This document shows, in pieces, positions 3,678-40,096 of a stretch of 64,000 nucleotides of DNA. The DNA is taken from contig OZ237741.1 in the NCBI GenBank assembly GCA_965178125.1, forward strand, positions 1,178,001 through 1,242,000, written 5' to 3'. The translations under genes and the position numbers were made by a program. A model generated the notes under the pieces. It was not told where the DNA came from. It saw only the letters and a program-made list of their open reading frames with translations, and did no database searches. Position 1 is the first letter of the stretch, and every line of letters starts with the position of its first letter. The DNA is from Bilabrum cf. latius (Eukaryota).

Positions 3678-5219
<1,542 letters not shown>

Positions 5220-17205: not shown

Positions 17206-19540
17206 TCAGGCGGGTGACAGCACTAGTGCCACCACCCCATGCCCAGGCACCCTCGCGGCATAGCCCCCGGTCTGCGGCCCCAGGTCCTTCCCATTCCACA
17301 CGTCCCTCACGTCGAAGACGCTGCCCGCATCGAAGCCTCCGCTGCCTGCCAGACCAGCTCCTGCATCGTCCTCCACCATCCCCACTCCCTCCGCCCTCGC
17401 ACGGTCCTCGTAGGTGGGTGCCCGCGCGCTGGGCAAGTCCGACCATTTGGCGGCCACCTGCTCCTCGTTGGCCGCTCGGTTCACCAGCAGCACCACGTAC
17501 TTGCCCCCAGCCAGCGGACCCGCCCATACCTCAAGGTTGCCCGATCGCGAGGCCTCCACGCAAAAGCTCCCGCCAGTTGTGACGTGCCCCACGTTGTCGT
17601 CGTCGATGATGTCCGTGGCCGTGATGTGCAGGGAGGACCCACTCGGCGCAGAAGGGTCGAACGTGTACTCGGTGGGCGACCCTCCCAGCAGCCAGCGGGT
17701 GTGAGGCAGCGGGCCCGAGGAACCGAACTGCTCGTTGGGTGCCAGGTAAGGGTTCCTGGACGCATGAGACTTGAGCGTGTAATTTCCCAGTCCGCCGGCC
17801 GGCCCCCCGCTCTGCTCCAGCACGAACAGCAGCCCTGTGTCCTACTCGGCCTAGGATGGATCGCATCCTACGAGCCCTGCCCATTGAGACTCCACGTGCG
17901 CGCACAGAGCAGGCGCATCCGAGGTAGGCTCGGGGTTCTCCGTCCAGATGAGCCCGCCCGTCACCGGCTGCAGGGAGAGACAGACGCCCTCAGGGACGTG
18001 CTGCTGCCCCCCTCCCGCCGCGCGCACCAGCCCCGTGTCGCTCGAGTAGGAGAACTGCTGGTTCGCGTCTTGGTCCCCGCCCGTCTTGCAGCTGCCATCG
18101 AATACCAGAGGCCCGTGGAAGTCGTATATGTCCAGGCAGTGGCCCGTGCTTCCCAGCTGCATGTGCTGCACGGGTCCAGCCACCTGCAGGTGCCAGTTCT
18201 AGGTTGCGCTCGATGCGTCGCAGGCCTTGGCGCCCAGCTGGTACCCGCTTGCAGTGGCGGCATCGATGCATTCCCCGCTGCCTCGGTTCTTCAGGTGACT
18301 GAAAGTGCCCGTGGACACGCCGTCAAACTGCTACTTTGGGTCGTTGGCGTCGCAGGGGGCGATCTGGAGGTACGAGGCGTTGGAGGAGGCGGTGTAGTGC
18401 CAGCGCTGCAGCGGCTGGGAGCTGTTGCACTTGGCCAGCAGAACCACGCCATCCGATGAATCGGGCACGATGGTGGTGTTGCTGGGCGCGAAGGAAGCGA
18501 CTCTGCGCGCCTGTATGCCCAGAGAGTCCTGGTTCGCGTCCATGAGGTCTTGCTGCATGACGAGGTCAATTGTGGGCTGGGTCATGGAGGGCAGCACGTT
18601 GCCCATAAACATGAGGGATTTCTGGGCGGCGAACAGGGAAAAGTGCGTGCGCGCCTGGATGGTGCCTCGGTCCGTGGGGTCTGCGGTCGGAACAAAGTCG
18701 CCTCTTCCGACCTGTATGAAGTCCAGCCAGTTCCAGAAAGAACCAGAGCCCGTGTCGTTGTGCGCGTACGGCCACAGACCAGAGCCAATGTCCACCAGGG
18801 TCATGGCCGACAGCCACGAAGGCGTGATGTCGTGGCCAACCCTGCGCGAGTTGCCAAACTCCCCCGTGTACACCACGGTGATGTCCGGCTGCCCCTCAAA
18901 GGCGAGGCTGATGGATCCACCCACCCGGTCGAGGGCCATCTGCATGCGCCTGTAGTCGTCCTCAGTGTCGTCCGGCAGGCCGGTGCACGAGCTGCAGCTG
19001 TCGTCTTTCAGGAAATCAACGCCCTGCACAAATGACGGTGGGTACAACTTGGCTGTTTTACAAGTGGTACAGGGCCACATTTCGGAAGCGTACGACATGA
19101 TGCGAGAGCGTGCTACTCACGATTGAAGCGTAGTAGGCGGCATCGACAAGCTCATGAAGGCAGCTAGCCGCGAAGCCTTGGCAGGTGTGATCACCCCTCG
19201 CGGTGTAGATCCCGAAGCTCATGTTGTTTTTCTCCTTGATGTGCGAAATGACAGCCTCCATGCCGCCATTCGGAAACCTTACAGGGTCTGGGATCTGTCG
19301 CCCCACGCCGTTGTCTGTCCTATTGTGCAGCATCCAGCAGTCGTCCACATGTAGGATCGTGTACACTTTGCTTAGGCCTGTCTGAACCATGATGTCGCTC
19401 GCGTTGGTTAGGTCGTCGCCAGTCACCGAGCAGCCGAAGCTGGTCCAGCTGCTCCACCCCGTGGGCGGGGTTTGGGCGACGCCAGACGTTGCGTACGCAC
19501 CAGTCGCGAAACCTATAAGCGCAGAAAGGATCTACTTCAT
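17206..19540 (-). CDS. GH27 alpha-galactosidase/melibiase with inserted ricin-B-type lectin repeats; intron 19024-19120
   Basis: QTPPTGWSSW, VDDCW, FGIYTARG, GVDFLKDDSC, RRVGHDI and NQDSLGIQA; QxW/F lectin repeats; C-terminal VRDVW...VPGHGV. TAG at 19532, 18331, 18199, 17851 and 17842; ends TGA. Confidence 0.9.
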
Positions 19541-20426
19541 GAGATCAGTCTGAATGCAGCCTCAGAACTCCCATGAAGTCGAACCGCTAGATCTACCGAT
19601 TCAAGTTGCACGCAACTTCAACTTGAAGTTGAACCGTCGGCGTTCTGGCAGCCGGCGTATGCTAAACCTAGCGGTAGTGACATGGTCTGGCGAACTTATG
19701 AAATTAATCGAGTATTGGCCACTGCCTCGCCATCCCATCATCCGTGGCACGCCTTCGCAGTACCCAGCCGTGGGGAGCAGCGGAGCAAGCCTCCGTGAGC
19801 TGCGGATCGCACGAGCCACCCGTGTCGTGGATCAACTGAGACAAGCAGACTGCTACGATTCCATCGAGCGACCCGCCGCGTTCATATTCAACTGCATGTC
19901 TTCGCCACAAGGTCCCCAGCAGGCCACACTGCAGCGAGCACCTGCCAACAGCTGCACCACCGCACCCGCTGCTCACACGGACAGATTGGGCTCAGCAGGC
20001 TGCGTCATTTCAAAAGTGGGGTTGTATGTCGTGGGCATGCCCTCGTGAGGCAGGCTCACCAACTTCCCTGTCCACTCGAATGGAGGCAGCGTGTTGCCGA
20101 TAGCTGAGGGTCCGCTGGTCGCTCATGCCTTGCGCTCGCAGATCAGGTTGAAGGTGCCAGTGGTGATCTTGCCGTCGTAGCAACCGTCCGCCAACCTCGT
20201 CAGGTCCCAACGGCTGCAGATGGCGCCCATGGCGAGCCCCTGGAAACCGGGGGACCACCTTGTAGTGGTTCTCGCGCATGATCCACTTCATCAGTGACTG
20301 TGTGCCCTCGATGTCGTCCAGCACAGCGTAGTCCCTGCGCGGGGGGCGGCCTGGCAGCCGAGCTGCGCGAGGTTCTTGAGAGAGCTGGGGTGACCGCCCG
20401 CCTTCTTGGCCCAGTATGTGCGGTGC

Positions 20427-20560
20427 GGGCGGAGGCCGAGGGGAGCGGGAACGGGACAGCGGGCACGGGCTGGCAGGGGGTGCTGGAGCAGTGCTACGAT
20501 GGGCTGGACCAGGAGGACTTTGCTCGGTTCGAGGGGTGGATGCAAGGGACCGGAAAGGGA
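20427..20560 (+). repeat. 134-bp direct copy of the sulfatase 3' end (16959-17092)
   Basis: Near-identical sequence (3 mismatches by eye), offset 3468 bp. Confidence 0.92.
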
Positions 20561-20682
20561 CGGTACCTGGCGTCTGCAGTGCATCTATTGGTTTCAGGTG
20601 GCTACAATAGCACCCAACACTTCCGGAATAACGCAAAGGGCAATTCTTCCGAACTTGGTTGGCACTGGTTATCCGCAAGAAC

Positions 20683-22203
20683 ATGGAGTTTGTACAGTCT
20701 GCAGCCAGCACAGTATCAAGGTTGTCATATTTTGAACAAGGCCTGCTAGTTGCTGGTACGCTAGCTGTCGCGTATGTTGCATGGTACGTCCATGGCTACG
20801 CTACCAAGTCGATCTTTGCGGCCCCGAAGTCAGCCAAGCCGCAGCCTACCCATGGCGTGCATCGGACCGGCAAATCGAAGGTGCTTTTGTTCGGAGGAAC
20901 AGAGTTCAGGGGTCTCGTTGACGGGGGATCCCCGTTCGTGGGCAAAGTATCTGGATTTTTGCGAGCTGCTGGGATCTCCCATGTGCACCGGCCTTGTAAC
21001 CTCATGAAGGCCCCCAAAGGCAAGGTGAGCCATTTGCCAGATGCATGACATATAAATTGTACCTTTATTATTGCAGTTCGTGTCCCTTGTTCATTCATCA
21101 TGGCCAGAATCGCAGATGCCATATCTAGTCCACAAGTGCGCCGATCCGGCTAAAGAGAACAAAGACGTTGTCGTTGCTGACTCGACCTTTATGATTTCGT
21201 ATCTGATCCGTACGTTTGGCGCTGCTTCCAAAGGGGCCACGGTGAGAGCGTGTCTGCTGGCAGCTGCGAGACCCCCCCCGATTCCCATGTGCACCGCCGT
21301 GGCCCTGCCAATGTGCGCGAACATCAAGCATGAGAAACAGATTGCGTTCCACGCATTGCGCTCTCCATACCGTCGCAATAATTTAACTACCCACCGCCTC
21401 TGCAGACTGGCAACGTGCTGCGGATGGGGAAAATGCTCCTCGCACCGCGGGACCCGGTCACCGGTCTCACGAACGCCCGCCTGGCCGACCTCGCCATTGA
21501 GAGCGGCGAGGCGCCCGACGGATACCCGAGCTCGCGCGAGTGGGCCTCCGCCTTCAACATCCGCCGCATGTGCGAAGAGGCGCTCTACTTCACCGTGATC
21601 CCCGCGCGGTGGGTCTGGGACGACGACAACTTCAGGCTCGTGTGCGCCGAGGCGTTCCAGGGGATCCCCGCCCCGGTGCGGGTCATCCTCGAGCCGTGGA
21701 TCCGGGGCCAGGTGGCTGCTTCCGTCAGGGCCCAGGGCATCGCTCGGCACTCTCGAAGTGAGGTGGAGTCGATGGCCAAGGAGATGATCGACGCTGTCGA
21801 GGCGCACCTGTCCGACGGGAGAGCGTTCCTGACGGGAGCGCACCTCACGGACGAGGACATGGCCGTGTTCCACTTTCTCGAGGGGCAGTTCCGGACCGCC
21901 TGCAGGCACGCTCCCAAGCAGCACATCCTGCAGCACTGCCCGCTGATCGTGGCTTACACGGACCGCATCCGGCAGGAGGTGTATCCCGAGGAGGCCAAGG
22001 CAGCGCCTGACATGAGCTAGACAGGCCCTGCCGAGTGCATCCCCATGGCCATCGCGGCGCACGCGCGGAGGCAGAAGCAGAAGGACCCCAACCTCGTCGC
22101 TAGGTTCGAGGGGGCGCTGGCCCCGCTGCCGGATGGTGACTCAGAGGGGGAGGGGGGCCAAGCAGGAGCCGAGAGCCGCAGTGCCGAGGCCAAAGACGAC
22201 TGA
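20683..22203 (+). CDS. GST-like metaxin / failed-axon-connections (FAXC) family protein; introns 21025-21115 and 21242-21405
   Basis: N-terminal TM, SPFVGKVSGFLRAAGI, APKGK|MPY, VADSTFMISYL, RRMCEEALYF, GIARHS and FLTGAHLTDED; reads through TAG 22018 to TGA 22201. Confidence 0.85.
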
Positions 22204-22384: not shown

Positions 22385-25228
22385 TCAGCCCAGCATGCGC
22401 CGGATCGCGCGCGGTTTCCTGCCAGTCTGCAGCACGCTCGCGTCCCAGCGACCTTCTCCTCCAGTCGTCACGGTGCTGTTGGTGCTTGGCCCGGCCGCGA
22501 CAGCGTTGCAGCCAGATGCTTCGGACCCCTCGGGCCTCGGGTCGAAGCTCCCGTCCGGCCGGAAGGCGCCGCAGTGCTCGCCTTTCCACGCCCGCTCGGC
22601 CATATCAATCAACGCGTCCTCCTGCGCTACCTGCTCTTCCACACTTGCTTCGCTCGCCCGAGCAAGCGCTTCGCTCACCAGAGCGAGGGCATGTGCCACC
22701 GGCCAGTGAACGGACCTGTACTTGGCCTCCTTGACGGCCTCGGGCACCAGCACCCGCGGGTCTGGCCTGTCAACCTTGCTTGCTCCGTTGCCTTTGGTTT
22801 TCCCTGTATCGAATTCTTCTCCCAGCCAAGTCCCCTTGCCCTGCGGCCGGTACACCTGGTACGAGAGGCCCTCTGCTGCCGCGCCTATATCGCTAAAGTA
22901 TCCGTTAGGCAGCTGGTAGTTCTGGACCTCGATCGCAGCGGAACCGGTGCCGCGCATCCACAGCATGTTGGACAGCTCGTTCCCGTGCACGGTCACCAGC
23001 ACGTCGGCCGCCCTCATAAGCCGCACCTGCTCGTGGAAATCGAATCGGCCCAGGGTGCTGAGCCTCACGTCGAGCACCACGGGCTGCAGCCGAGTGCGCG
23101 GGCCCTCTCCTTTGGCCTTCCCTGCCTTGAGGATCGCCTCTGCTCGATTTCTGGCAGCCAACAGCTGTGACTGCGTCCCTCGATCGTCTCCCTGTGTCTC
23201 GTTGGCAAGGGACCAGGGCACGCGGGTGGGCAGGACGAGATCCTCGGGGGGAATGCCCAGCACTGCACCGAGAGTCTGGTGCAGATTGCTCTGGGACCTG
23301 CGGAGGACCGTGCGGTATAGCCACAGCACACGGATTACTCGAGGAGGCGGCAGTCCACCTGAAAACCCATCAGTTGCAGGTACTTTCATTCCAGCAGCAT
23401 TCCCACTAGCTTGCTCTCCCCACTGCTGCAGCCCATCCGGCCCCATCCAGGCGGGCACCGCAACATTTAACGCGTCCGTGTTCCCCACCGGCCCGGTGCT
23501 GCCCCCCCTAGGAACCGCCCATACCCTAGACCGGAACAAGGATTCCAGCTCCGGGTCCATCCCGGGCACGAACCCGCCAGCCGCCAGGGCCTTCCAGCCC
23601 CCCCGCCTCGTGTCCTCCAGCACGCGCACTGGTGCTGCCGCAGCTTTGCGCCACGCAGCCAGACGGGCCACGGCCATTGTGCGCCTCCTGATTTGAATCG
23701 GAGCATACGGAATGGGAACCGCCGGCGGCATCCCGAAGTGCGTCCGGCCCAGGCACAGCACGCCCCTGTCAGCCTCGTCGGGGTCGCCCTAGTATGCTCC
23801 CCCGTCAGCGCACAGATCGCCGTGCGTCTAGTCTGTCCACAGCGGGGTGCCCGGTTCCACAACCGCCAAATGTCGGGCGACGAATAGGTCCTTCACGAGT
23901 TTCTCTGGTGGCTTGCCCCAGCGATTCTCGGCTATGGATGACGCCCCAGTCGTCTGGGTGTGCAGCTCCTGCTGGTGCTGGTGCTGGTGCTGGTGCTGGT
24001 GCTGGGGGGCAACGGTCACCAAGCCATCCGGCCAGACCTGGAATTCGGTCAGGATCACCGTGTGTTCCCCGAATCCATCCGCCGGCCACATCGTTCTCGC
24101 ACTCGTACCGGCATTGGCCGAGACTGGGAGAAGCGCCGGGAGGTGGGCGAGGACCAGCGGCCTGGGGGCTCCTAGATTGAGCCAGTGGTCGAGTGCGGGC
24201 AGGTATCCGTTGGGCAGCCAGTGGGCGAGGTGCTGGCCCTCGAACATCTTGACCGCCAGAACAGTGGCGCCTGTTAGGTCTTGCCTGGGCCTGGGCTCGG
24301 GTTCGTACCCAAGGGCCTACCTCCTTGGCTGGCCCTTTCCAACGTGGTGACCCGTCGGTTTCCTGCCTGCCGCTGGCCCCGGTAGGAGCGCAGCCGTCGT
24401 GGGCTGGTAGTTGCGTATACCCGCTGGCATGTCACGATAGAGTGCTGCCACCTGCAGGCCCAGCCGGAACCCAGTGGGGGTTGCCTGGGCCCATGCAGGG
24501 ACCGGGGCGCTGGGGCCGAGCAGGCCAACATCCACTTGCTCCATGGGCATGGGATGTTCGCGCTGCTTTCGCACTCCGATTGCAACCGAGGAGTGAAAGG
24601 TGCACAGCATGTCCGGTGGCTCTCCAAGCGTGATGCTGTCCTCCGCGCGCTGGTCGCCGTCAACCGTGTTTGCGAGTGCCGCGCACAGCGGCAAAGGCGC
24701 TCTAGTGGAGCCTTTCATCTCGCGCAGGGTTTTCACAGATACGTCTTCCAGCCTTGATGCAGCAGCGAGATGGTGCATCGAGTGATCCCAAAGTGCGCCG
24801 GGGCCCATCAATCTTGGCTTGTCTTTGGTAGCACTATCGCTGTCGCCAGATTCACGCTTTGGCTGCACAAGCAACGTGACCACCTCCCCATCGTACTATG
24901 TGCCCCTAATGGCCGGCCTTGTTTCTCCTTCCAGCTCCTTAAGCACTGGCAGGCGAGCCAGTACGACATGCTGTCCGACTGTGCTTGGCCTTGGCATCCC
25001 ACTGGCACGGAAATCTGCATTAGATTCTGATTGCTAATCCTGTAGTGATAATGCTGATTCATATGCAATCGACCAAAGCCACGGCAGCAACACTAGCGCC
25101 TGGTACACGCACAGCAGAGCCATCAATATGCTCAGCATTGTAGTCCACGGGTTCACTGCGTACCGCGTAGGGTCCCATCCGCACTGCAAGCCCCGCACCA
25201 ATCGTCCTGTGCGATGCCTCTCTGACAT
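22385..25228 (-). CDS. Type II membrane glycosyltransferase, GT61 (DUF563)-like
   Basis: N-terminal TM, HLAHWL, and C-terminal FHEQVRLMRAADVLVTVHGNELSNMLWM...AAIEV. Frame continuous across TAG 25034, 24896, 24317, 23828 and 23789; ends TGA. Start inferred. Confidence 0.78.
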
Positions 25229-25398
25229 AGGGGCCTCGCGGCCCGGAAATCTAGCTTCCACAGCAGGTTCAGCCCAAATGTTCACTTTGTCCGGAACCCG
25301 GAAGAAAAGGAGAACCAATAATGGAAGAACCGGGCCTTTAGAGATCTACAAGCAAACAGACCAGCTATTCTGCCTCCACTTTGATTTTGCAAAGAGCC

Positions 25399-25992
25399 AT
25401 GGATGCTGTGTTTGCCTCCATGATTGAATCGTAGCCGAGACAATCGAAACCAAAGGATAGCAAGGCATAGAAAAAGAAGAAGAAAAAGTCCAAGAAATCG
25501 CAGAAAATAGCCGGGAGCAAGCGACCAAGGGGTGCTGATAGCAGTGATGAAATGGTTGCTGCTTTGCGTAGCGACGGAAACGAAACTTCAGGGGGGGTAG
25601 CATCGCGCAGTGGCAGTGCCGGCGATTCCGCGAGCAGTTCGCCTGCATAGCCAACTGCGAAGAAAAGGTCCAAGGCAGTAGCAGCAGCAGCCGCAAAATA
25701 GGATATTGATATGCTTCTCCAAGTATCTAGGGCAAAGAAACGGCGAAAAGAGCATGCTGCCAGGGTTGCAGCCAAGGAAGGCAAAGCGGTGGCAGAGGCG
25801 AAAGATGATTTGAGGAAACGGCTTGAAGAGTTAGAGCGCAAGCATATTGCGCTCAACGGGGGATCAGATCCATCAGAACCTAAGCCAGTGCGAACGGAGG
25901 ATGGTTTGCCTATCTATACGGTGGATAGCTTGAGCATCGGCAAGGGCGGTGGCACGCCACAGTGCCCTTTCGACTGCTCCTGTTGCTTCTGA
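25399..25992 (+). CDS. DUF1764-family Lys-rich protein
   Basis: C-terminus RTEDGLPIYT...GKGGGTPQCPFDCSCCF; four in-frame TAGs upstream of the listed ORF; ends TGA. Confidence 0.85.
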
Positions 25993-26064: not shown

Positions 26065-28320
26065 TCATCGCAGCCCGTCGGTGGCCGCAGGCAGCGCACC
26101 AGGCACCACCGCGCCCCCGGGCAAGGCCTCTTCCACGCTGCTGTCGCCCCCATCCATGATCGGAGCCTAGCCACTGGCACTACTAGCAGCACTCCTATCT
26201 TCACTACGGGCAGATGAGTTACCACCCGGCATAACACCCGCACCCGTGCCAGCACCATGTGCTTCCCCATCACCTGTCCCTAAACCCTCCCCCTGCATGG
26301 GACCCTGACCCCCCGCACTCCCCTGTGCCCCCTCCCCCTGCATGGGACCCTGACCCCCCGCACTCCCCTTTCCCCCCTCGCCCCCTTGCGCCGCCTCGAT
26401 CTCGTCCATCGAGAAAGACCCGAACTCCTTGTTCCACACGCGATAGTGCTCCAGCTCGCTCGCAGCCACCGAGCTGCGCACGGTCCGGATCGCTTCCTAA
26501 AAGTGCCTCCGGGAGATGGCAGCCAGCGAGGCCTCGCTCACCGCACCCAGCGCCTTGACACCCGCCAGCCCGCCCCCCGCGCCCGCCCTCCGTTGCTGCA
26601 GCACCAGGTCGCGCATCGGACCCATGGCAGCCTCGCGGCACAGGTTGTGCACGTCCGCTCCGGAGTACCCCGCCGTTTCCGCGGTGATCCAGTCCACGTC
26701 AGCGGCGGACAAAGAGTTCCGGTTCTGCCGCAGCAGCCTCCTCACGAGGAACTGCCTCGCGTCTGGGTCCGGCAGGGGGATGTACAACCGCTTCGTGAAG
26801 CGCCTGCGGGCTGCCTCGTCCAGCTCCTGCGGCCTGTTGGTTGCGCCCACCACGAGCACCTGCTGCCTCGAGTCCTTGTCCCCTCCCCCAGTGGCCCCGT
26901 CCATCTCCACCAGGAACTGCGTCTTGATCCGGCGGGAGGCCTCGTTGTCCTGCTCCGACCGAGCGGTGAGCAGGGAGTCGATCTCGTCGATGAAGACCAC
27001 GCTTGGACTCCGATACCTCGCCACCCCGAAGAGCGCCCTCACCATCTTCTCCCCGTCCCCGATCCACTTGCTCGTGAGGGAACTGGCGGAGATGGAGAAG
27101 AAAGTCGCGTCGCAGCTGCAGGCGACCGCCTTGCCTATCAGGGTCTTGCCTGTCCCCGGGGGCCCGAAGAGCAGCAGCCCCCTCGGGATGGCCCGCAGGC
27201 CCGTGAACAGGTCGGGCCTGGCCATGGGCCAGATCACCAGCTCGCCGATCGCGCTCTTGGCGTGAGGCAATCCGGCAATGTCATCGAACTCTACGCGCTG
27301 CCCGTCGTCCACCACCTCGTTCTCTATCATCTCCACCATGCGAGCCTCCAAGTTGGTCAGGCACTCGGGCAGCTCGGCCCCCTCTGCCTCGGCGCCTGCC
27401 TGCGCCGCGGCCACCTGCATGGCGTGAAGCGCAGTCCCCGGTTTCGCCGTGACACCGTCACCACCGCCGGCGCCCGAGCCCCCGCCGCCTTCCGTTCGCG
27501 GGCGGACGTTCCGGCTCGCCGCGGGCCCCCCTCCGCTGCCCGATCCAGAGCCGGCCCCGGCCCCGGCCCCACCTGCTGCCCCCTGCCGCCCCGGCGGGTT
27601 GAATGTCCGCCTCTTGAGACCAACCCGTGGCCTGGCTCTGCCCGCGCCATTACTACCATATGCATTGCCGCCCCCGTCGCTTCCCCCGCCCGAGCCGTAC
27701 CCGGCGCCCGCCCCGTTCATATGCTGTGCATCAGAGCCTCTTCCCCCACCACCTTTCTTCGCGAGATCGCGCATGTATTGCGCGCGAGCGCTGTTGAATC
27801 CGCCTGTGGGTGCACCTGTATCAGTTGCTGCGCTTGAACCGAGCGCGGTACCGCCACTAGCGGCGGCAGCGGCGCTGCGAGGCAATGAAGGGGGCGCCGG
27901 AGCAACTGCTCCGCTACTCGGCCGCGCAACTGCTCGCCCAGATCCCCCGCGCATGCCTCCAAACATGTGCCCGCTCAATCGCTTCATCATAACATCCATG
28001 CTAACCGACCCTCCAGTACTAGCGGCGGGTGCGTTCGCGCTCTGATATGGTTCGCCTGGACTGGTGTGCGACTTGGTTGCGGCCGCGGAGGAGGAGGACG
28101 AGCTGGCCGATGTCGTAGCGCTCTGAGCTAGCTGCCGCGCTCGCTCTGAAATTTCGTTGGCACGCATGTGGGACAAAAAGTCGGTTGAGAACAGCGGTGA
28201 TGCCTGCGCGAGCACAGTGATGCAGGCACGGGCAACGATGGTGCGATATCGGCGAGTTGCCGCCAGGCAGACATTTCGGCGCATCGGACGCAAGCGAATG
28301 CTCTCACAATAGCTGGACAT
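26065..28320 (-). CDS. FIGNL1: Fidgetin-like 1 AAA+ ATPase (start uncertain)
   Basis: [51 protein letters not shown] and [16 protein letters not shown]. The Vps4_C-like tail ([12 protein letters not shown]...WNKEFGS) follows TAG 26497; ends TGA 26065. Confidence 0.88.
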
Positions 28321-28854
28321 GGATCGGCACTGCTGAGTCGCCCTAAAACTGCGTCGGGGGACAATAGCCCCGCCAGGCCGCCGCGCACTGGAGGCAATTG
28401 GGGAGGTCTTGCCTGAGATTGGATTCTCTGCGAAGCGTGTCCCAATCGCCGGAGCTCTAGTGTATGCTCCAGTGTCGTCCCAGCACGGGTATTAGGAGAA
28501 TCAAACATGGCTCCGGAAGCTTGGCGCCGTGCGTCTCTCGAACCAGATGCGAGAGATACCAGCACGTGTCTGGCTCGAGCCACTCTCTCCGCATCGCCCG
28601 AGGAGTGCTCTCCATGGAGGTGAATATAGTCCTACATTAAGGCGGATTCAATAGTGTAGGCAGCGATGGCTTCCAAACTGCCTGGAAGCCTTGGTCGGGA
28701 AGAGAGAGAGAGAGAGAGAAAATAGAGTTTTCGCACGCAATTCAATACCAGAGACAATCCGAGGACTGCCACCAAAGGGAAGCATTTGAACCGAGAAGTG
28801 TGACGAGCCACAGCCACTCACAGGCAGACCCTCTAGAGTGAGCCACAGCCAGGC

Positions 28855-30813
28855 TCACAGCTGTCCACCGCCCGCCTACAACGCCTGTTGCCGCCGGCCC
28901 GCCACGTAATCCGAGTCCTGGTACCTCGCGGGATCGAACAGCTTCGCGCACGCCCCCCTCCAACCGGTGGCGTCCTCTGCCTCGAACGATGCGAACTCCC
29001 CGCAGGCCTGCGCCGCGACCATCTCCCCCGCCGCCATGGAAGCCATAATTCCGTACCCGCTCAATCCAGCCACGGTGAAGGCCCCCCGCACCGGGCAGGT
29101 GCTCCGCGTGAAGCGAGCATCCAGCGCACCCGGCTCGACTTCGCGGCACACGTCGCGCCAGCTGCGGCCGCCCCGCCCCACGAACCGGTCCAGCGAACCC
29201 GACAAACCTTCACCAGCTCGCCCCGGGCGGCCCCCCTCCCCCTCCCCCTCCTGCAGCAGCTCTACCGCCGGCGAGGCCCCCACGAGGGGCAAGTTCTCCG
29301 CCGTCCTGGTGTAGTACCCCCCGTCCACGCCCGGCACCCTCCCCGCCGTCGGTGCGGCCTCACTCGTCACACCTCGCCTTCTGGCCCACGCCCGCTGGGC
29401 CCGCCCCAGGGCCTCTGCGTCCCCCGCGTACGCCATCAGGTCCGGGATCACGCGGCTGAGCGCCCGCAGGCACAGCTCGGGATACAGCTCCGAGTCCAAC
29501 AGCCCCGCGTGGGTGGGGCACCCCGCGACGGGGGAGGGCACCTCCAGGGGGGCGTGCCAGCCCTCCCACAGCATCAGCACCGCGTCAGAGTCGGGGCCGC
29601 CGTAGGGCCGAAGGTGGGCGCCGGGCACCTGCTCCGCCCGCGCGAGGGCCTCTGCCCGGGCCGGCCCGAACCACTCGGTCACAGCCTCCAGCGACTCGGA
29701 GTCGTAATCCAGCTGCGCCCCGTCGGCGAGCACCACCATGGGTGCATTTCGGGGAACAACGCCGAGGGTGTCCCTGAGGAGCACTTTGGCGTGGAGCTCG
29801 CTGTACAGGGGCAGGTCCCCACCTCGCACCGCCCACCACGGCAAGCCCACGGCCCCGGCGGCCGTGGCCTCCCCCGACCACGGATCGGACGACTCGGAGC
29901 CGAAACCGCCACCGAATGGACCAGCACCTAGAAGGCGGTGCGTCTCCAGCGCCGCCGGCCCCGTGCAGTTCACGAACGTTCCGCAGGCTACGTCCTGCCT
30001 GTGGCGCCGCGGCCCACCGTTGCCCTTGCCATTCGACTCGTGAATGGACACGCCCGCCCCGACCACCCTTGGCTCTGCATCCCCACTCGTGCCACCCTGC
30101 AGGTGCACGGCATCCACGGCACCCCTCACTAGCCTGACCTCGCCCCCAGCGGCGCTTGCCTCCTGGCGTGCCGCCTCCAACGCCACCATGCCTGCGGTGT
30201 GGGCGGGCAGCCATCCGCACCTTCTGGCCCACGCGGCGCCAACGATGCCATCATCAAGGTACGGGAAGGCGTCTCGCACCGCGGCTTTGTCCGCCAGCAC
30301 GTCCACCCCGGGAGGAGGAGAAAGGGGAGGGGCACCTGTACCTGCACGCCATGCACCTGCGTGGTTGCCTCGTGGCGCATCTTGGAAGCTGCCGCGATGC
30401 TCCCGCACCATCGGAAACTCTGCCGGAACAGTGTCGTTGGAGCGACCATCGGATGTTTCCTCAAAAGCGGAGCACATTTCACGAATAAACGCATTGCTCC
30501 GACTGAGCTTCTCCCCGTTGCCTGGACTATTCCGAGTCACGAACAGGTACCCAGGTCGATGCATCTTGAAGTCTCCGCTCTCGCTTGCAAGCTCATCAAG
30601 AAGATCAATAGAGCGTGACATGAAGTGTCGCGACTCTGGCAGCGGCCAGGCGTCCCGAAAGCACTCAGTGCTTACTGCCGATGTGTACTACATCGCGGGC
30701 CGTGGATCTACTAAAAGGATGCGCTTCACGCCTCGCCTAACTAAGAATCGAGTAGTAGCGATTCCAGCAATGCCAGCACCTGCAACAACCGCATCAAATG
30801 TTGCAGGGATCAT
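28855..30813 (-). CDS. FAD-dependent oxidoreductase (DAO / sarcosine-oxidase-like family)
   Basis: DAVVAGAGIAG dinucleotide-binding motif lies upstream of TAG 30688; also TSAVSTECFR, DGGYYTRTAENLPLVG and LSGYGIMA. Reads through TAG 28876 to a C-terminal GGQL and TGA. Confidence 0.85.
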
Positions 30814-30924
30814 AAGGATCGGCAGATATTATGGCGGTTTCCGTTGCAGAAGATCGGGAGGCCGACTGACATGTGTGACGAGGGCACTCACAAATTTTCG
30901 AGGTTGCCACTTCACGGCAGCCTA

Positions 30925-33900
30925 ATGGCTGGTGTGTCCCGTTCACAACTATCTGAATAGTCTGATTTGATCGATAATGCTATAAAGTCCCTTCGACGAT
31001 TGATATCGCTGCCAGATGGGATCCGATCCGTCCTTCGGCGCCCTCCCTTTCGGCTGGTACTCGACGTTGCGATAGCAATCGACTCCAAGACGAAGGCCCT
31101 CGCCGGCTTATTCCAGGGCGATGAGAAGTCATCTAGGCGTATCAAGCAGCGCTACGGGAAGGATGGGAAAGCCCTAGTGTTGCAAAAGCTTGTCCGAGCT
31201 GTCGAGACTGCAACGGGTGCGAAGCAAGACTCCTTGTGCAGCGTTTCTGACATTCTTAGAGGGAAGAACCCGGGTCGGACGTGCAACCTCTTGCATCAGC
31301 TAGCCATTCTCGCGTCTGCTCCCGACTCTGTCGCCGAGCTTCAATCGGCCTCGAAGCTGGCTTGCACAGAATTCGAAATGGAGCGAATCCGTGTGTTTGG
31401 TCCCATCGGAACGGGGCAGAGCGCCATAAGCGATAAGCCGAGTGCCGGTGATACGGCTCACCGCGACGACAAGGCAATGCGCGCCGGCCCATTGCCGGTG
31501 AGAGCGGCTCACACTGGCACCGGCACTGGAATGCTCGGGGCACGCTCAGAAGCAGGCACGGACAAACTGCAGCATTCAAGAGGCGGTGAATTGAAATCAG
31601 CAATTCAAAAAAAGTTCAGACCCCTTTCAGCCAGACGCGCAGGCAGGTCAAAGCCCGTACTGGCGGAGACTCGCCACCTGCAGGACACGCCACAACTTGA
31701 AGGTACCAGTGGCCACCGAAACGCGCCGGCCGCAGAAGGAGCACCCACTCGTCACGCGTCGGTAGAGGGGGGAGGACTCGTCACACCACGAGGCAGACGT
31801 GCAGCCCTGGCTCGGCTGGGCCTCTCCACCGAGTCGGAGGGCGCGGCAGGGGAAGGGGCAGTGGCAGTGGCAGGGGCAGTGGAACGGGCAGGAGCAGAAG
31901 GGGAAGAGGCTGCTGGGTTCGCACCTTCTCGGTCCCGCGCCTCCGTGATGACCGATGGGGCTGGCCCTGCAGCTCACGAGTACATTGAGAAGGGTATGGT
32001 GCGCACTCGGCTGCGGCGGCCAATGTCGGCGGCTCTGTCGCGGCGCTCTCAGCATGACGGTGCTCGGATTCGCGGGGGTAGTGGCCGGCACGGGGCCGGG
32101 GACACGGTGCTGGGGGAGGGCAGGATCGGGGCGGTGGAGGGGGCGGTGGGCAGGAAAGCGAGGGCCTTGGAGCTGCTTGGTCTGGCATCTAGCAGTAGAG
32201 GCAGCACGGGGCGAGCGTCCGATGGGGTCGGAGGTGGTGCAGGGGCCGATGGTGCTCTGCGAGGGGCTGGACCAGATGCCAAAGCGAGTTCGTCGGTGCT
32301 TCGCGCGGCAGCATCTGGCCTTGGTCGCACTAGGCCGCAGTCCGCGACCGGAAGTAGGGGCACCGCGAGGCACAGGGACCATTTTGGGCTCCGGATGACA
32401 CGGGCAGCGGGCCGGAGAGACCAGGCAGACGGAACCGGTGCTGGGCCGCAAGGATTCGGCAGCAAGAGGCGAGCGCCCAGGGCCTCCGTGGCAACGAGCG
32501 GCGCGCTGTCAGGCGAGGGCTATGGTGGTCACGAGCATCGGCACGGGCAAGAACGTGAACGTTGGCGTGGGTCTGGGTCTGGGTCTGGGTCTGGGTCTGG
32601 GTCTGGCTCTGGCTCTGGCTCTGGGTCTGGCTCTGGCAGGGGTGCCTCGGTTCCGCTGTCCGGAGCGATGATCGGATCAGGGAGCCGCGCCGCGGCCCCC
32701 GCCTTGGGGTCATCTCCCTCCTGGACCCGTGCCACGGCCCCCGCCTTGGGGTCATCTCCCTCCTGGACCCGTGCCACGGCGGCTGAGAGCGAAGAGCTGG
32801 GGCAGAGGCTGCTGCTGGCGGCTGAGAAGGGAGACTCCGGGGCCGTGGGGGAGATCCTGGGTGAGTACGCCGTGCTGGGTCTCAGGCTGGGGAGCCAATG
32901 GGCGGGGAGGCTGGGGCATGCTGATGAGGGGGGCGGAGGGGTGGAGGCTGGGGGTGTCAAATCATCCGCATCGGAAGCGGGGGCTTTAAGTCCTGGATGC
33001 TCCGCTGGTGTCGGGGACAGGGGTCTGGAGCAGGAGATCTGGGACATGGCCGTGAGCGTGCTGCCAGACGCTGAGAGGGGGCTAAGCGGGTTCACTGCGC
33101 TGCATTACGCTGCATCTAGGGGTCACCACGAGGCCGTGTCTCTCCTGCTGTCGGCAGGGGCCTCCCCCGGGATTACGACCAGCGACGGTGACACTGCCCT
33201 GCACCTGGCCTGCGACGGAGGCCACTTCCGTGCGGTGAGGCTGCTGTTGGACTTCGGTGCCGACACCGAGGCCAGGTCGAGTGGCTCGCTGGACGAGACC
33301 CCGCTGTTCCCTGCGGCTCGAGGGGCCTCGCCGGGACACGAGTAGTGCGTGCGGCTTCTGCTCGCATCGAGGTGTGACGAGTGCGCCCGCAACCGGATCG
33401 GGGAAATCGCGTCCGAAGAGGCTGAGATGGCAAACATCGTGGGGATGCTCAGCGGGGACAGTGATGGAGCAAGTGCTCGCGCGGCCGGTCGCACCGGCCC
33501 CATCCACCGGATGGTGGCTCCGCTGCTCGTCCGTGTACTGGCAGCTCTGGATGCGGCTGACGTGGCGCGGGCGTGCATCGCTTGGGGCAGGGTCCATCGG
33601 CTGTGCTCTGGACCTGCTGGTGCCGTCCTCCTCGGCGGGCACGAGCGGGGAGGCAAGCCAGCCTCGGATGCTGCGGGGTAGCGAGGCTCAGGGGACAGTC
33701 AGCCGAGTGGAAGTGGTAGCAGGGAACATACTAGGGAATCGCAACCGCAATCGCAACCGCAATTGCAGCAGGAGCGGGAGCGGGAGCAGGAGCAAAACGA
33801 GGGGCAGGTCGGCGAGGAGGGAGCCAGTGGGGGAACAGGGGGCGGGGACGCTCCTGGTCCGGTGGCACGTGAAACATTCGATGCGCAGCAGCTTGCAAGC

Positions 33901-34059
33901 TCCGTTGCCACTGCCAGTGCTGCAGCGCGGGGTGCTTCTGACGCACCTGCCTACCACAGGGGCGCAGTGCACGGGGTGGGCGAGCACGAGGCCAGGCTGA
34001 GGCAACTGCTCGGGCTCGGGGGGTTTTCTAGGCCGGCGGCGTCTGACCTGTTCCGATGA
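30925..34059 (+). CDS. Protein with IFT54/TRAF3IP1-like N-terminal CH domain, ankyrin repeats and an F-box-like segment (about 1044 aa)
   Basis: LRRPPFRLVLDV...ILRGKNPGRTCNLLHQLA; ankyrin motifs GFTALHYAA, GDTALHLAC and ETPLFPAA; LLVRVLAALDAADVAR. TAG at 30958, 33343 and 33679; ends TGA. Confidence 0.7.
32569..32780 (+). repeat. Coding (GGGTCT/GGCTCT)n Gly-Ser microsatellite followed by a 42-bp tandem duplication
   Basis: Read directly from sequence; encodes (GS)n and APALGSSPSWTRAT x2. Confidence 0.85.
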
Positions 34060-34195: not shown

Positions 34196-37100
34196 ATGGC
34201 CGACAGCACTGCGGTAGGCGTTGCGAAAGCTCTCGTATCACTTTGCCGATCTATTTCCCCGGACAATGCAGCAGCGGCAACATGCGAGCGCGTGTGCAAG
34301 GCCGCTGGATACCTGACGGCCAATCGAGGTATGCTCTCTGTCCAAGCCTGCAAAAGGCATGCCTCTACCATCTGCCATTCGGATCCGTCTGCATCACTGA
34401 TTTTTATTTCCCACAGACAGCCTCGATCCAGCGGATGGTGAATTGGCGACCAAGGTAGTGTCAAGGTGCAGCTCCAACGGTACGTCCACCACTTTCGAGG
34501 CTTTTATTGAATTTATGATCCATAAAAAGTACGCGCATGAACCAGCACACATTTACTCCTTTTGCAGTATGCAAGAGTGCTCTTGCCACGACTTCGACGA
34601 AGGTGGCCGTTCGATTGGCTGTCACGTCGGACGTGCTGGGCTCCATGGCACCGCAGCACGACTCGCCGAGCAGCCTGGCGTTCCAGCAAATAATCAATAC
34701 TCTCATCAGGCACACTGCTGCCAGTTCCAGTCGAATCGCTGCCGTCACATCAGTGCTTCCAGACGTATAGGCGTCCCTAGCTGAGCTGATCGAATCGTGC
34801 TCCTTCCCGCCCCTCGTCGACTACGCCAAGTGCTGCGCTCTGGCGGCCGAGCCCCTCGCAGCTGCAGCAGCACGTGTATCGGCAGAGCCAGACGCGGCAT
34901 CCCCGCTGTCCTGGCCCTCGGGTGAGTGGCCCACGAACTCGCGCGTGCAGAGGCCAGCGGGATGGCAGTCAGCGACTGGCGAGGAGCACCGGCACCCCTC
35001 CCGCGGTGCATCTGGGAATAGGAGCAGCAAGAACAGCGAATCGGCTGCCTCTGCATTAGCCGCAGAAGCAGCCGCTCCCGGGACTGCGGCCTCCCTCTCA
35101 CTCGCCGTGGGGCAGCACCACCGTGCAATGCAGCAAGAGAGGTACACACCCCCCGACGAAGATGACGAGGACCAGGCAGCGGAGCTGACGGTTGCCACAC
35201 ATCCCGTACTGCGGAACCTCCCCGGCGGCGCCGCGGCCCTGCGGCGCAGCTGGCTGCTACCGCCTCATTGCACGGGGGTGGGCCGGAGCTCCGCGGCCGC
35301 CCTGGAGGCCCTCGTGCCCGCGGTGCAAGAAATCCTCCCCTCCCTGCACGATGGGTTGCATACGGGTCTCTCGCGGGCCCGTTCCGCCTGCGAGGCCGCC
35401 TTGCTGGCGGGCACCCAGTCGGCCTCGTGGGTAGAATCCCTGGCTGGTGTGGGCGCTGTGTCGGGGCTGTGGCGGGAGGGGGACCCCAGGTCTGGGTGGA
35501 ACAGGGACGTTTCGAAGCTGGGCTTTGTTCTCTCGGACGGGCGGGCTTGCCTGCGAGCCATGGAGCGACTCGGAGCCGCTATTCTATAGGTGGCTGCGAG
35601 CTCCGGGCCCCTGTCCGGATTAGAATCCTCTGCTTCAGGTGAGGGGAGCGGGGCCAGCCCGATGTCTCAGCCCCTGGAGCCGGCGCTACTGCAGGCTGCG
35701 TGGGAGGCCGTGCGGCAGCTTGGGCTCGTTGTGCCCGGTGATGCTGGTGGCAGTGCAACTGACGGTGGTGCTGCACCGGGTGTCATCCAAGACCAGGAAT
35801 CGCTCGGCGCCTGGCTGCAGAGAGGACAGGCCGTTTCTTCTTCTGCTGCTGCTGCTAGCGGGAGACCCATTGTGCAAGTTAGGCCGCCCTGGGGGCATGG
35901 CCTCCCGCTGGCCATTAGGGTGCCCGGTGCTTCGGCTGCTGGCGCTGGTGCAGGGGCTGGGCACCTAGCAGGGGCAGGGGCAGGGGCAGACTCGCCGGGC
36001 CGAGGCCAGGTGGTTGCAACCCCTAGCAGGGTGGTGGTTTTGAGAGACGCGGGCAGCACGCCCTCAGCTGCGCCAGGGCGCGAGACATAGTCCGGCCACG
36101 AGAGAAAGGAGGCCGCGCCCGGGGCAGTTGAGGCTGTGCTGGGCCCGTGGTTGAGGCACCAGAGGGTCTGCTGGATCTTGGCATACGGACACCCCGCGGG
36201 GCAAGGGGCAAGAAACAAGGGTGGGCGGGACGTGGGCGCACTCGTCACACTTCCGCCGGCACTGGGCAGTGCAGCGGACCACAGCGACGCGGGGGTGCGT
36301 GCCGATGCAGGGGCTGGAGTCGGGGCGGGGCCGAGCGCAGATTCTGGCGTGGTGCTGGCAAGCCGGAACTCTACTCCGGTGGGCAGCAATGGCGGTGGTG
36401 GAGCCGGGAGCATGCGCGCACGGAGGCGCCCCGAGGACTCGCAGGCGGGCGAGATCGGGCTGAGCGACGTAGGTGAGGCTGGCAGCGGGGGAAGCGCCCA
36501 GGAGCCAGCGAGGGAGGACGAGCCGGTGGCTGGTGGCGGCCTCCTTGATAGGCTGCTGCGCTCTATCTGCGGCTGCTGCTTCAGCGAGGCTGACGTCAAA
36601 GCAGCGACAGTTGTGCCGGTGGGCGGTGAGGGTCACCAGCACTAGCAGGAGCAGAAGCAGGAGCAGTCACAAGGTGGTAGGGGGTCAGCGGGAGGCGGCA
36701 GCAATGCCTCGCCTCGGGTCGGTCGCAATGCCGATCCAGCTGTTGCTGCTGCTGCTAGCACCGGTGCTGGCAGTGCCCCGCCAGCAGCTGCTACTGGCCC
36801 AGCTGTGTGGCCAGCTGGCACCCCCACGGCACTCCCAGACGACTAGGCTCCTGTGTTTGAGGCGATAGAAGAAGAAGATGCTGCCCTGAAGGTGCCTGCT
36901 GGCCCTGCAGTGGTGTTGTCCGGTGGACAGCAGGCAGCCGGGCCCAATGGCCTGGTTCACGGGCCTGTCAGTGCAACCGGCAGCGCGGAACCTACACTCA
37001 TCCAGGTGGTGCTCGTTGCACTTGCTGGCTTAGGCGGTCTGCACAAGAGGCTGACTGCCGCGGTAGATGCACTCGACGGCGTGCTGGCCGTGTGGCACGC

Positions 37101-38796
37101 CCAGGTCGGCCGCTCCCACTCGGACATCCTGCTCACTCAAGAGGGCAAAGAGGTGGGCTCGTCGGTCTACGAGCTAGATGCCACCCCCACTGCGGGGGGT
37201 TTCTCGGGGAGCAACGGGCCGGTGGATCCTGCCGCTGCCCGCCGGATTCTCGAGGAGAGCGGGATGGGGTCGAGCGAGCCGTGGAGGACTCGGTGGGCGC
37301 TGCAGGCTAGTGGCGCCATGGCGCTGCAATGCGATGCATCGAACCGAATCGTCACAGCGGCGCGCTCCGTCTTTACCCGACTGCTCCCCCTCGCCCGGCG
37401 CATGGTGCCCCAAACTGCCTGCAGCACGCTGGCCTCTGCAGTGAGTGGCTTCGTGCACGGGTGGGTGGGGCACGCAGCCAGGCACGGGTTGCGGATGGGC
37501 ACCGGCGGCGTCCTGCAGCTGCACACCGACCTGGTGTTCCTGAGGACCTGGATCTTGGCGGGGTGCCCCGTGGGGCGCGCGGTGGCGGACCTGGAGAAGG
37601 AGGCCAAAGCGGCGAAGGAGGCCGAAGAGGCCGCCAAGAAGGCAGGGGTGAGGAAGCCCAAGCCCAAGGACCCGCCGCTGCCGGACCTCCCGAAATGTGC
37701 GCTGCACTGCGCTGCAGTCCTGGCCGCCCGTCATCAGGCCACGGATCATCTGTTCCGGGATGCCACCGCCCAACTTGAGGATCACCGGCAGCAGGGGAAT
37801 CAGCAGGATGATGTGCAAAAGAGCGCGAGCGGTGCTCTCGGCTTTGACCTCGACCCCAACCGGCTGCCGGGGGCGGTGGCCGGGGACACTCCCCGGGGCG
37901 GTGCTGCCGACGATGAGCAGCAGCAGCAAGCCAGCGGGGGCAGGCGCCACTTTCCTGCCCCTGGTGCTGGTGCCGGTGTCGGTGGCGAAACTTCGGCAAC
38001 AGGTGGGCTCGCGGCGGCACTGGGTGCCTTGCGTGCCGGCTCGCCAGAGAGCACTCGACTAGAGGCACCGGAGGCGGAAGAGGGCGGCGTGCGGTGGACC
38101 TTCCACGGGGCCTCTGCGGTGGGGGAACTGCTGGGTGCATTGCCTTGCTGGGCACGGGCACACGGCGTGTTGCAGCTGCTCCTAGCGGGCACGGACGCGC
38201 CGGGGCGGCCGGGACACGCTCTGCTGGGCCCAAGCCCTGGCCATACGCCGATCGCACCCTCCACAGTAGTACCGATCGGGGGACGTGCAGCAACAGCGGC
38301 GGCAGCAGAGGCAATCGAAGGCTCTAAGGTCAGTCTGCGCACCGCCTCCCATCCCGCAGAGATCGGGGCAGGCGAACCCAAGGCGAACGGCAGTGCGGAC
38401 AGCACGAGCGCTGCTGGTGCTGCAGGTGCCTCCACGGGGGTCGGACAGGCGTGGGGTGGTGGTGGCGGTGTGGATGGCCCAGGCCAGGCAGCGGGAGAAA
38501 GCTCAGGCGCGAGCAATGCTGATGCAGCTCCAGAGTGGCCATTCAAGGTGCGCGCATGGCGTGGACCCGACGGGCAGGACTAGGCCACATTCCGGCTGGG
38601 CACGGTGGGGGCAGATGCATCTGTCGAGGACGCTGGTGTGTGGCTGAGGATTCGAAGGGGCCCTGGGGATGGGGCAAGCATCGAGGTAGAGAAAGAGGCG
38701 GTTCGGTCAGGGAACAAGGCGGGACTTCATCCGCTTGCGGTGGTCGTCGGTGGCGGGCTGGGGGCCAGCTAGCTGCCCGCCGTTGTGGCGCACTGA
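34196..38796 (+). CDS. Large Ala-rich protein with a CCDC142-like C-terminal motif; predicted introns 34329-34416 and 34480-34567
   Basis: One frame from about 34570 to TGA 38794 with seven TAGs. GWVGHAARHGLRMGTGGVLQLHTDLVFLRTWI resembles the CCDC142 GALQLxxD motif. Two 88-nt GT-AG introns link it to ATG 34196. Confidence 0.6.
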
Positions 38797-38935
38797 GAAT
38801 GGGGCGCCCGAGGCATGTCCGGGCCAGCTATGTCTTGCAGGCTATTTACACACATTTACGTGCAATCGGGTTCTGCCCCAATCAGTGTCGTGCACGCACC
38901 TTGACAACCGACTGTAGCAGGTATCGCTGTTTTGT

Positions 38936-40096
38936 TCAAGAAGACACCACACCCGCCGCACCCCCCGCGGCAGCTCCGCTCCCACTGCCTGCGTCACCTA
39001 CCTTGCCCTCTTCATCCGCACCCACACCTTCATCTGCACTGCAAGGCACTTCATCTGGCGAGTCCACCCCCAGAACTGGGAAGGCGCTCCCATCCGATCG
39101 CTGGAGCCAGTTCTCCTCGGGGTACTCGAAGCCCTCCGCCCCCTCCACCACGTGGATCGAGTAGGCGTGCCGCTGCGAGCTGCTGGTATTTCGCTCCGAG
39201 TAGTGCACGACGGCCCCGTGCAGGATGACGAGTGTGCCCGGGGGGCACTCGATGGGCACGGCCCCTTCGAGGCTGAAGGGCGCGGCCTCTGGCGGGACCA
39301 TCTCGGTGAGGGGCTCCTGGGGAGGGGCCTCCCTGGGTACGCTGGCCTCCTTGCCCTCCTCTGCCTCCTTGGACTCTGCGGCCGCAGGAGCAGGAGCGGA
39401 GGAAGAGGCTCCACCTGCAGACGAGGGCGCCGAATCGGACTCGGATGGCTCCAGGCCGGCCCTTAGGCCAGCGGCCGTGCGCCGAAAGTGCTGGCGGACG
39501 CCGGCTTTGTGGGAACCGGGAATCGCATACAAGCACCCGTTGTCCTTGCGACACTCATCCAGAGCCCACCAGAACCCCGTGCAGCTCTGAGGCTCCGTGT
39601 ACAGGAAGGTGCCGTCCTGGTGTGGGTTGACTGCGCCGCCAACACGCGGCGGCTTGAAAATATACATGCTCTGCACCACTGTTGGCTTCTTCATTCCGAG
39701 CTATTTCGAAGCGGATGCAACGAATGGTGATAACGACGCTTTCCTGAATGCCTTGGACTTTTCGTGCAGGGCATGGCCGACTTTATTCATGACTTGGTGC
39801 TTCTTATCTCTTAGATCACCTTCCTTTGTGAAGGCATCTTCCTCGAAGAAGAAGCGGATCTTATCACCAGAACCCAAAAAGTATTCATCTGACTTCCTGG
39901 TCTGTTCGTCTGTGGTAAACACGCTGACAGTCTTTGCATCAAAGCCGTCAATTAAGTGCGCAATCGAACGCTTCATGTCAGATATGCTAGAGGAGTCTAA
40001 CGCGTTCGGAATCACAAGAAATCCATCTCGGTCAAACTTCAAAAGCTATTCTTTCGATAGTGACTCAACTGGCTTGCTCTTCTCTACAGATGCCAT
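38936..40096 (-). CDS. PHYHD1: Phytanoyl-CoA dioxygenase domain-containing protein 1-like (Fe/2OG dioxygenase)
   Basis: FDRDGFLVI, YFLGSGDKIRFFFEE, NKVGHALH, QSMYIFKPP, PHQDGTFLYTEP and HGAVVHYS...RHAY; TAG at 40046 and 39701; ends TGA. Confidence 0.92.

Follow-up and report, generated by a model that had tools for sequence, protein, structure and literature searches.

Evidence that TAG encodes glutamine in the nuclear genome of a probable bicosoecid and in its endogenous virophages

The window and its in-frame TAG codons

We examined a stretch of 64,000 nucleotides (the window) from the genome assembly of Bilabrum cf. latius (GCA_965178125.1, contig OZ237741.1; G000:C7:1178001-1242000 in our numbering), in which a first-pass annotation, made from the sequence alone, had proposed that the codon TAG specifies glutamine. 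The window, a piece of eukaryotic DNA densely packed with genes, has a GC content of 62% and lies within a 48.6-Mb assembly of 111 contigs, whose overall GC content is about 60%. Open reading frames (ORFs) of at least 800 amino acids number two under the standard code and 13 when TAG is opened as a sense codon, as against three when either TAA or TGA is opened instead. The genes and their in-frame TAG codons are given in Table 1.

Table 1. Genes and in-frame TAG codons of the window, in positions counted from its first nucleotide
Feature	Position	Strand	Remarks
alpha-Galactosidase with ricin-type lectin repeats	17206..19540	-	Pfam Melibiase_C and Ricin_B_lectin; five in-frame TAG; ends TGA
alpha-Galactosidase exon 1	19121-19540	-	
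alpha-Galactosidase intron	19024-19120	-	97 nt, GT-AG
alpha-Galactosidase third codon, in-frame TAG	19532..19534	-	absent from the first-pass annotation
In-frame TAG, alpha-galactosidase lectin repeat	18331..18333	-	within Ricin_B_lectin; same in runs X1, X4, X6
In-frame TAG, alpha-galactosidase lectin repeat	18199..18201	-	within Ricin_B_lectin; same in runs X1, X4, X6
Two in-frame TAG (17851, 17842), alpha-galactosidase	17842..17853	-	contig check
GST-like ORF	21382..22203	+	weak GST_C match, below cut-off; TAG 22018; ends TGA
Glycosyltransferase-61 ORF	22385..25852	-	7 TAG in stop-to-stop frame, start not fixed; ends TGA
FIGNL1-like AAA ATPase	26065..28491	-	TAG 26497, 26167; ends TGA
FAD-dependent oxidoreductase, DAO family	28855..30828	-	TAG 30688, 28876; ends TGA
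MIP-T3 CH-like and ankyrin protein	30745..34059	+	TAG 30958, 33343, 33679; ends TGA
1425-codon ORF, weak CCDC142 match	34519..38796	+	7 TAG including 36643 (Gln-rich tract); ends TGA
PHYHD1	38936..40141	-	TAG 40046, 39701; ends TGA
OSGEP/Kae1, two frames with an intron between	3678..5270	-	TAG 5025, 4881, 4287

The eight TAG codons on which the first-pass annotation had built its case are all present and in frame, with the coordinates and flanking residues that it gave. The lectin pair, 18199 and 18331, falls within a Pfam Ricin_B_lectin match (residues 215-313), TAG 33343 within Ank_2 and TAG 26497 within Vps4_C. Ricin-type lectin repeats carry a QxW motif, and glutamine at the two lectin codons is backed by sister repeats within the same protein; a search of the lectin region against the PDB gave no matches. 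Human PHYHD1 has Gln opposite TAG 40046, in agreement with the proposal, while at TAG 4881, likewise put forward as glutamine, three OSGEP structures have Gln, Leu and Gln, two in its favour and one against. The cited sites are thus real, but as evidence for glutamine the list is uneven and does not by itself constitute proof.

Decoding of TAG at conserved columns

A search of the genome for dynein gave 28 matches, in which TAG was the sole internal stop codon. Ten kilobases taken from each of 19 dynein heavy-chain genes (63,244 codons) contain 279 in-frame TAG, with up to 49 in a single 10 kb, and a frame free of TAA and TGA extends over the entire 10 kb at 18 of these 19 loci. The translations were aligned to 149 of 150 diverse homologs, one being left out at 99% identity, and 139 of the 279 TAG codons fell in columns holding at least 20 homolog residues. 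At these columns the best-fitting residue was Gln, 227.6 log-units above Glu, and the same procedure decoded 61 of 61 sense codons correctly. Where columns were 90% conserved, 9 of 10 TAG sites stood at Gln; at 70% conservation the 28 sites comprised 19 Gln, 7 Glu and no Leu. The rate at which TAG departs from Gln at highly conserved columns is about that of CAG and CAA, and Gln ranked first in 16 of the 19 genes taken singly. Enrichment of neighbouring Gln, a weak signal, placed TAG third among codons. The tabulation of consensus residues that the first-pass annotation had suggested was therefore carried out on many more sites than it had listed, and Gln is clearly best; a predominance of Leu, Glu or Tyr at TAG columns, which it had named as the outcome that would count against it, was not seen in dynein.

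Comparison with a sister species points the same way. Two loci in a metagenome scan (L102 and L103) belong to one species, being 99.9% identical in nucleotides, and are 90% identical in protein and 78% in DNA to the host, as we call the organism of the window. Ten TAG codons of the sister species stand opposite CAG (8), CAA (1) and GAG (1) in the host dynein ortholog, and the single TAG of the host in that ortholog aligns to a CAG of the sister species. Among the 80 metagenomic dynein loci scanned, L102 and L103 use TAG, and 76 of the other 78 carry no stop codon in the aligned columns. Two unrelated loci, L112 and L174, have one TAG each, at Tyr and Leu columns, and are probably errors or broken genes.

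TAG is thus a sense codon genome-wide and interchangeable with CAG and CAA, making up about 9-14% of host Gln codons, and the glutamine assignment is upheld by the dynein columns, by the sister species and by the virophage copies described below. A UAG=Leu code was considered and rejected, the Leu share of dynein TAG being 0-2% and the variable loop of the candidate tRNA short.

RNA-level evidence and assembly error

Editing of TAG to CAG in mRNA under the standard code would likewise yield Gln columns, as U-to-C conversion restores a glutamine codon. The point at which a contig from run X1 departs from the genome is precisely the splice acceptor of the alpha-galactosidase, and the depth of this contig (7.38, 4.5, 0) follows a spliced model (7.36, 4.52, 0) rather than an unspliced one (8.63, 3.25, 0). 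This contig shows no alternative letter at four TAG codons, and the listed X1 pieces span 14 in-frame TAG, all unchanged. We infer that X1 is RNA, although none of the runs is registered as such; the run itself is labelled 'RNA? (probably DNA)', contigs mask rare variants, and coverage of run X2 is too small. The spliced-like contig with its unedited TAG weakens mRNA editing without closing the question, and editing would also leave unexplained the CUA tRNA and the altered release factor described below. On balance we regard editing as highly improbable.

More improbable still, to the point of being negligible, is that the TAG codons are assembly errors or the stops of pseudogenes, even though faulty assembly is often the cause of premature stops in endogenous viruses (PMC10120064). 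The frames are interrupted by TAG, not by TAA or TGA, and TAG occurs in the single-copy essential genes eRF1, PRP8 and GluRS. Other sequencing runs concur at the TAG sites: contigs of X1, X4 and X6 have no alternative letter at 18199, 18331, 33343 and 36643, nor do those of X4 and X6 at FIGNL1 26497. Moreover, one and the same TAG is common to 14 near-identical copies of a virophage (type 1, below).

Termination and the release factor

A coding-context test over 454 kb of the genome (an earlier, stricter version of which gave 12 TAG, 8 TGA and 0 TAA) found that coding signal persists past 231 of 271 TAG, 1977 of 2116 CAG and 311 of 352 CAA, but past only 3 of 11 TAA and 12 of 79 TGA. End-like context was more frequent at TAG (15/271) than at CAG and CAA (76/2468; p=0.047), and long ORFs held more TAG than expected within their final 20 codons (p=0.010). 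Both observations lend some support to a code in which UAG is mostly glutamine but ambiguous, either ending a minority of genes or being read in part as Glu or Tyr. The source of the near-end excess, however, is a block on contig C6 that holds a thrice-repeated ORF and a virophage; with this block removed, the final 20 codons hold 8 TAG, the expectation being 8.2. There is accordingly no depletion of TAG near ORF ends of the kind found in context-dependent stop/sense codes, a class of code that we rejected for the host. The repeated ORF of C6 (409-411 kb, 454-456 kb and 491-494 kb) has identical ends with two TAG near the end in its three copies; it is probably a retrotransposon, and one copy adjoins the virophage.

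Outside the C6 block (354 kb), TAG accounts for 13.8% of Gln-type codons and occurs in 63 of the 68 ORFs that reach 400 amino acids. These 68 host ORFs end at TGA in 59 cases and at TAA in 9, counts in which some ends may lie within introns. Among recognisable genes, eRF1 ends at TAA, and PRP8, glutaminyl-tRNA synthetase (GlnRS) and GluRS end at TGA. TAG may still terminate a small minority of genes. The code in which both UAA and UAG specify glutamine (UAR=Gln; NCBI table 6) was also set aside, since the dynein frames hold no in-frame TAA and pattern matches included no UUA tRNA, although intron-bearing tRNAs could escape such a search.

We found one gene for the release factor eRF1 in the genome, with two in-frame TAG. 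The first occupies a Gln column (115 of 117 homologs); the second, at the column of human L69, is taken up below. The four residues that precede the GTS motif are all altered, the usual residue being present in 100-108 of 110 homologs; the Ser of TASNIKS, found in 111 of 117 homologs, is replaced by Val, and the Lys/Arg of the YxCxxxF motif is altered as well. GTS itself, S33, E55 and S70 are kept. In yeast eRF1, L69A raises read-through, most of all at UAG, UGA requires S33 and S70, and N30A is without effect (PMC4381064). The changes in the host protein would fit a factor still able to read UAA and UGA, and most recognition of UAG may have been lost. Furthermore, with two TAG codons in its stop-reading domain, a factor that terminated at UAG would truncate itself, so the change would tend to lock in.

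Candidate tRNA and weighing of the assignment

A search for tRNAs, in which 63 of 780 candidates were scored and 48 matched, yielded a single-copy tRNA with a CUA anticodon (G000:C23:907607-907679). Its cloverleaf is the minimum-energy fold, and two pattern scans gave no other amber or ochre tRNA; no UUA tRNA occurred among their matches. It has a short variable loop, and its G73 and D-stem are the same as those of tRNA-Gln(UUG). The host GlnRS (L195) has Gly in its anticodon-binding region in place of the Arg of the human FKRL motif, which is presumably the residue that reads G36 in E. coli; this may mean nothing, and Gly stands at the same site in plants with the standard code. A CUA-anticodon tRNA was also seen on a 512-kb viral contig (L240), sharing 15 anticodon-arm bases with that of the host; a scan of viral contigs for this 15-base arm gave 19 matches, one being the CUA tRNA and the others no tRNA.

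Several observations weigh against the glutamine assignment. At conserved dynein columns (70%) Glu is in excess at TAG (7 Glu to 19 Gln) relative to CAG and CAA (19:265; Fisher p=0.003, not gene-matched), and Gln is not the first-ranked residue in 3 of the 19 dynein genes, which have 1-7 sites each. None of three PRP8 TAG codons lies at a Gln column, one standing at Pro (115/116), one at His (117/118) and one at a variable column. The second TAG of eRF1 falls where 116 of 117 homologs have Leu, the Gln belonging to a plant homolog. Within the window, OSGEP TAG 4287, which the first-pass annotation itself had flagged as a usually Leu position, is Leu in all three structures, and FIGNL1 TAG 26497, claimed as glutamine, is instead Glu, Glu and Ala in three FIGNL1 structures; with OSGEP TAG 5025, outside the earlier list (Leu, Arg and Arg), only two of the five structure-aligned sites (40046, 4881, 4287, 26497 and 5025) are mostly Gln. 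Lastly, the nearest relative of the CUA tRNA among 26 nuclear tRNAs compared is tRNA-Tyr (41/60 positions, against 36/60 for tRNA-Gln(CUG)). The likeness is strongest in the acceptor arm, at 12/15 positions with the next best tRNA at 6/15. Eukaryotic Tyr determinants are C1:G72 and A73 (PMC9976931). The CUA tRNA carries C1:G72, but has G73 rather than A73.

The Glu excess and the Tyr-like stems would both be accounted for by an ambiguous UAG. A gene-matched mixture fit to the dynein TAG codons nevertheless assigns Glu 1% (0-14%), Leu 0-2%, Tyr 0-4% and Ser 0-3%, and this fit, together with the absence of depletion near gene ends, makes ambiguity unlikely. In PRP8, about 150 codons of low complexity are inserted in frame within the N-terminal region (L075:1360-1850), and Gly/Ala-rich insertions of a similar kind are common in genes of the window.

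A further possibility is that TAG is read as glutamine by near-cognate tRNA-Gln(CUG) aided by a weakened eRF1, the CUA tRNA being minor or charged with another amino acid. The CUA tRNA is single-copy and is not closely similar to either of the two tRNA-Gln found, and read-through by near-cognate tRNA-Gln is reported in standard-code organisms (PMC13192750). A perfectly folding CUA tRNA has been retained, however, with the D-stem and G73 of tRNA-Gln(UUG); were it charged with Tyr, TAG would appear at Tyr columns, which is not so, and the density of TAG reached in dynein would require efficient decoding. We therefore consider this route improbable, even more so than ambiguity, and favour a dedicated tRNA. 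Its sequence is compatible with a possible origin from tRNA-Tyr and a later switch to Gln, though chance or convergence may also account for the likeness. Several CAT-anticodon tRNA genes (L025, L035, L039 and L046-L048) have acceptor and D stems that match tRNA-Pro(TGG), and remoulding of tRNAs may be common in this genome.

Endogenous virophages

The C6 block contains an insertion of 23.5 kb at 31% GC (G000:C6 about 466,500-490,000; L213-L216) that carries genes for a capsid protein like that of mavirus, for an rve integrase that has a chromodomain, and for an ATPase and a primase-polymerase. The capsid protein matches PDB 6g45 (E 1.5e-15) and Pfam MCP_V20_C, and the ORF preceding it has no Pfam match. 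The 40 matches of a genome-wide capsid search fall into four groups; their internal stops were TAG only in 35, TAG together with TAA in one, and absent from four. In one element from each of types 1-3, 45 of 50 ORFs contain TAG, the codon accounts for 32% of Gln-type codons, and the ORFs end at TAA (39) or TGA (11). Capsid identity between these three recoded lineages is about 23-28%. Endogenous mavirus-like elements of at least four types are thus present, and three of the four use TAG as sense.

Comparison of nine type-3 capsid copies shows CAG or CAA in exchange for TAG at two columns, AAA at one, and unrelated codons at two more in the variable tail. The near-identity of the type-1 copies suggests recent spread. 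The type-4 element (L226; G000:C21:636,500-646,499) lacks TAG altogether, whether as sense codon or as stop, in its 8 ORFs, which comprise 3412 codons and hold 124 CAA/CAG; it is readable under either code and is perhaps a recent arrival. No free virophage relatives were found in three scans of viral contigs. A search of the genome for giant-virus capsid gave no match, and is uninformative, as the positive control was also silent. Endogenous viruses of Streblomastix likewise have the variant code of their host (PMC10120064), and the elements described here would use host ribosomes, three of the four types having adopted the host code.

Phylogenetic placement

In a tree of PRP8, the host falls on a long branch inside the stramenopiles (support 1.0) and outside the group of oomycetes and ochrophytes. 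In a tree of eRF1 it groups with Bicosoecida sp. CB-2014 in a ten-member clade (support 0.99). Both are single-gene trees with FastTree supports and one named bigyran, built from 65 of 120 matches for PRP8 and 117 of 120 for eRF1. Among the 120 matches listed for each, the nearest full-length PRP8 is about 77% identical and the nearest Cox1 sequences, both environmental, are 94% and 89% identical. A mitochondrial contig of 38,401 bases (G000:C111) has in-frame TGA and a UCA tRNA, so that TGA is Trp; its long ORFs all lie on one strand and end at TAA in 22 of 22 cases. Mitochondrial UGA=Trp and mavirus-like insertions, both as in Cafeteria, also speak for bicosoecid affinity, and the lineage is probably a bicosoecid or a close bigyran. 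A second, different 18S gene of 1802 nt (L053; G000:C95:6099-7900), which we take to be dinoflagellate-like, and a divergent 1700-nt array on C12 were also seen, and part of the assembly may be foreign DNA.

Discussion

We conclude with high confidence that nuclear TAG is read as glutamine by a dedicated tRNA. With equal confidence, the code that the host shares with at least one sister species is one in which UAG is Gln and UAA and UGA are stops, UGA being the main one. The predicted mechanism is that the CUA tRNA would be charged by GlnRS and would read UAG and not UAA.

The same code is known from the fornicate Iotanema spirale, in which UAG has never been seen as terminator (Panek et al. 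2017, PMC5304391), whereas the host is a probable stramenopile. Gene ends differ (UAA 104 and UGA 15 in Iotanema), as does eRF1, which carries T32G within GTS in Iotanema, while the host keeps GTS intact and is altered in the flanks, in TASNIKS and at L69; a tRNA(CUA) was predicted and not found in Iotanema, and is found here (PMC5304391). Hartmannula sinica and Trochilia petrani, as well as Protocruzia tuzeti as cited there, likewise use UAG=Gln with UAA/UGA stops, in most genes as in the host (McGowan et al. 2024, PMC11687900). The genomes of those ciliates have 27-54% GC, in contrast to the GC-rich, UGA-dominant host; UAA ends 86.9-98.3% of genes in phyllopharyngeans, and, in the parts of that paper considered here, no suppressor tRNA was detected in H. 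sinica and T. petrani (PMC11687900). UAG is also uncoupled from UAA in the rhizarian exLh and in TARA phyllopharyngean ciliates (PMC5304391, PMC11687900), and exLh eRF1 is altered at L69 (PMC5304391), where the host gene has a TAG codon. There, however, UAG is Leu and is read by a Leu-type tRNA with a long variable arm, unlike the short loop and the Leu share of at most 2% in the host. In the UAR=Gln code of many ciliates, hexamitins, oxymonads and ulvophytes a stop has become Gln as in the host, but TAA is Gln too, and the viral elements of Streblomastix belong to the Metamonada capsid group rather than to mavirus-like virophages (PMC10120064).

The bicosoecid Cafeteria burkhardae resembles the host in its mitochondrial UGA=Trp and its AT-rich endogenous mavirus-like elements (EMALEs) of several types with rve integrase, and differs in having about 70% GC and a genome of 34-36 Mb (PMC6972860, PMC8547959). 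In the parts of those papers considered here, a non-standard code is mentioned for its mitochondrion only. In a 2024 review of stramenopiles the genetic code appears, within the portion considered, only among the references (PMC11412368). The literature searched, in which subscription papers and supplements were little covered so that an earlier report may exist, gave no report of a nuclear code variant in stramenopiles, nor, for a code in which UAG alone becomes Gln, a tRNA that had been identified. Stramenopiles are probably a new lineage for this code, the code itself being already known. The host stands apart from the published cases compared in its UGA dominance, in a CUA tRNA of unexpected apparent ancestry and in its recoded mavirus-like virophages.

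We tentatively advance a combined hypothesis, which as a whole is more likely to fail than to hold: that this is the first nuclear variant code of a stramenopile; that an amber suppressor arose from tRNA-Tyr (GUA to CUA) and switched to Gln in a GC-rich genome that stops at UGA; that the TAG codons of eRF1 lock the change in; and that the marine virus pool has become split by code. If so, the giant viruses on which virophages depend should themselves be recoded for TAG or lack TAG stops.

Few nuclear codes give UAG a meaning apart from that of UAA, and a major lineage would be added to them if the placement holds; the host also breaks the pattern of UAG-only codes favouring UAA as stop. A candidate tRNA, together with a near-complete genome containing eRF1 and both synthetases, a set missing from the published UAG-only Gln cases, makes neglect of UAG by eRF1 directly testable, and host and virophages provide a system in which the compatibility of codes can be studied. 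In practice, gene models built under the standard code would be cut short for the majority of genes in this clade and in its virophages; this may be the reason that the searches gave no close match to a named protein.

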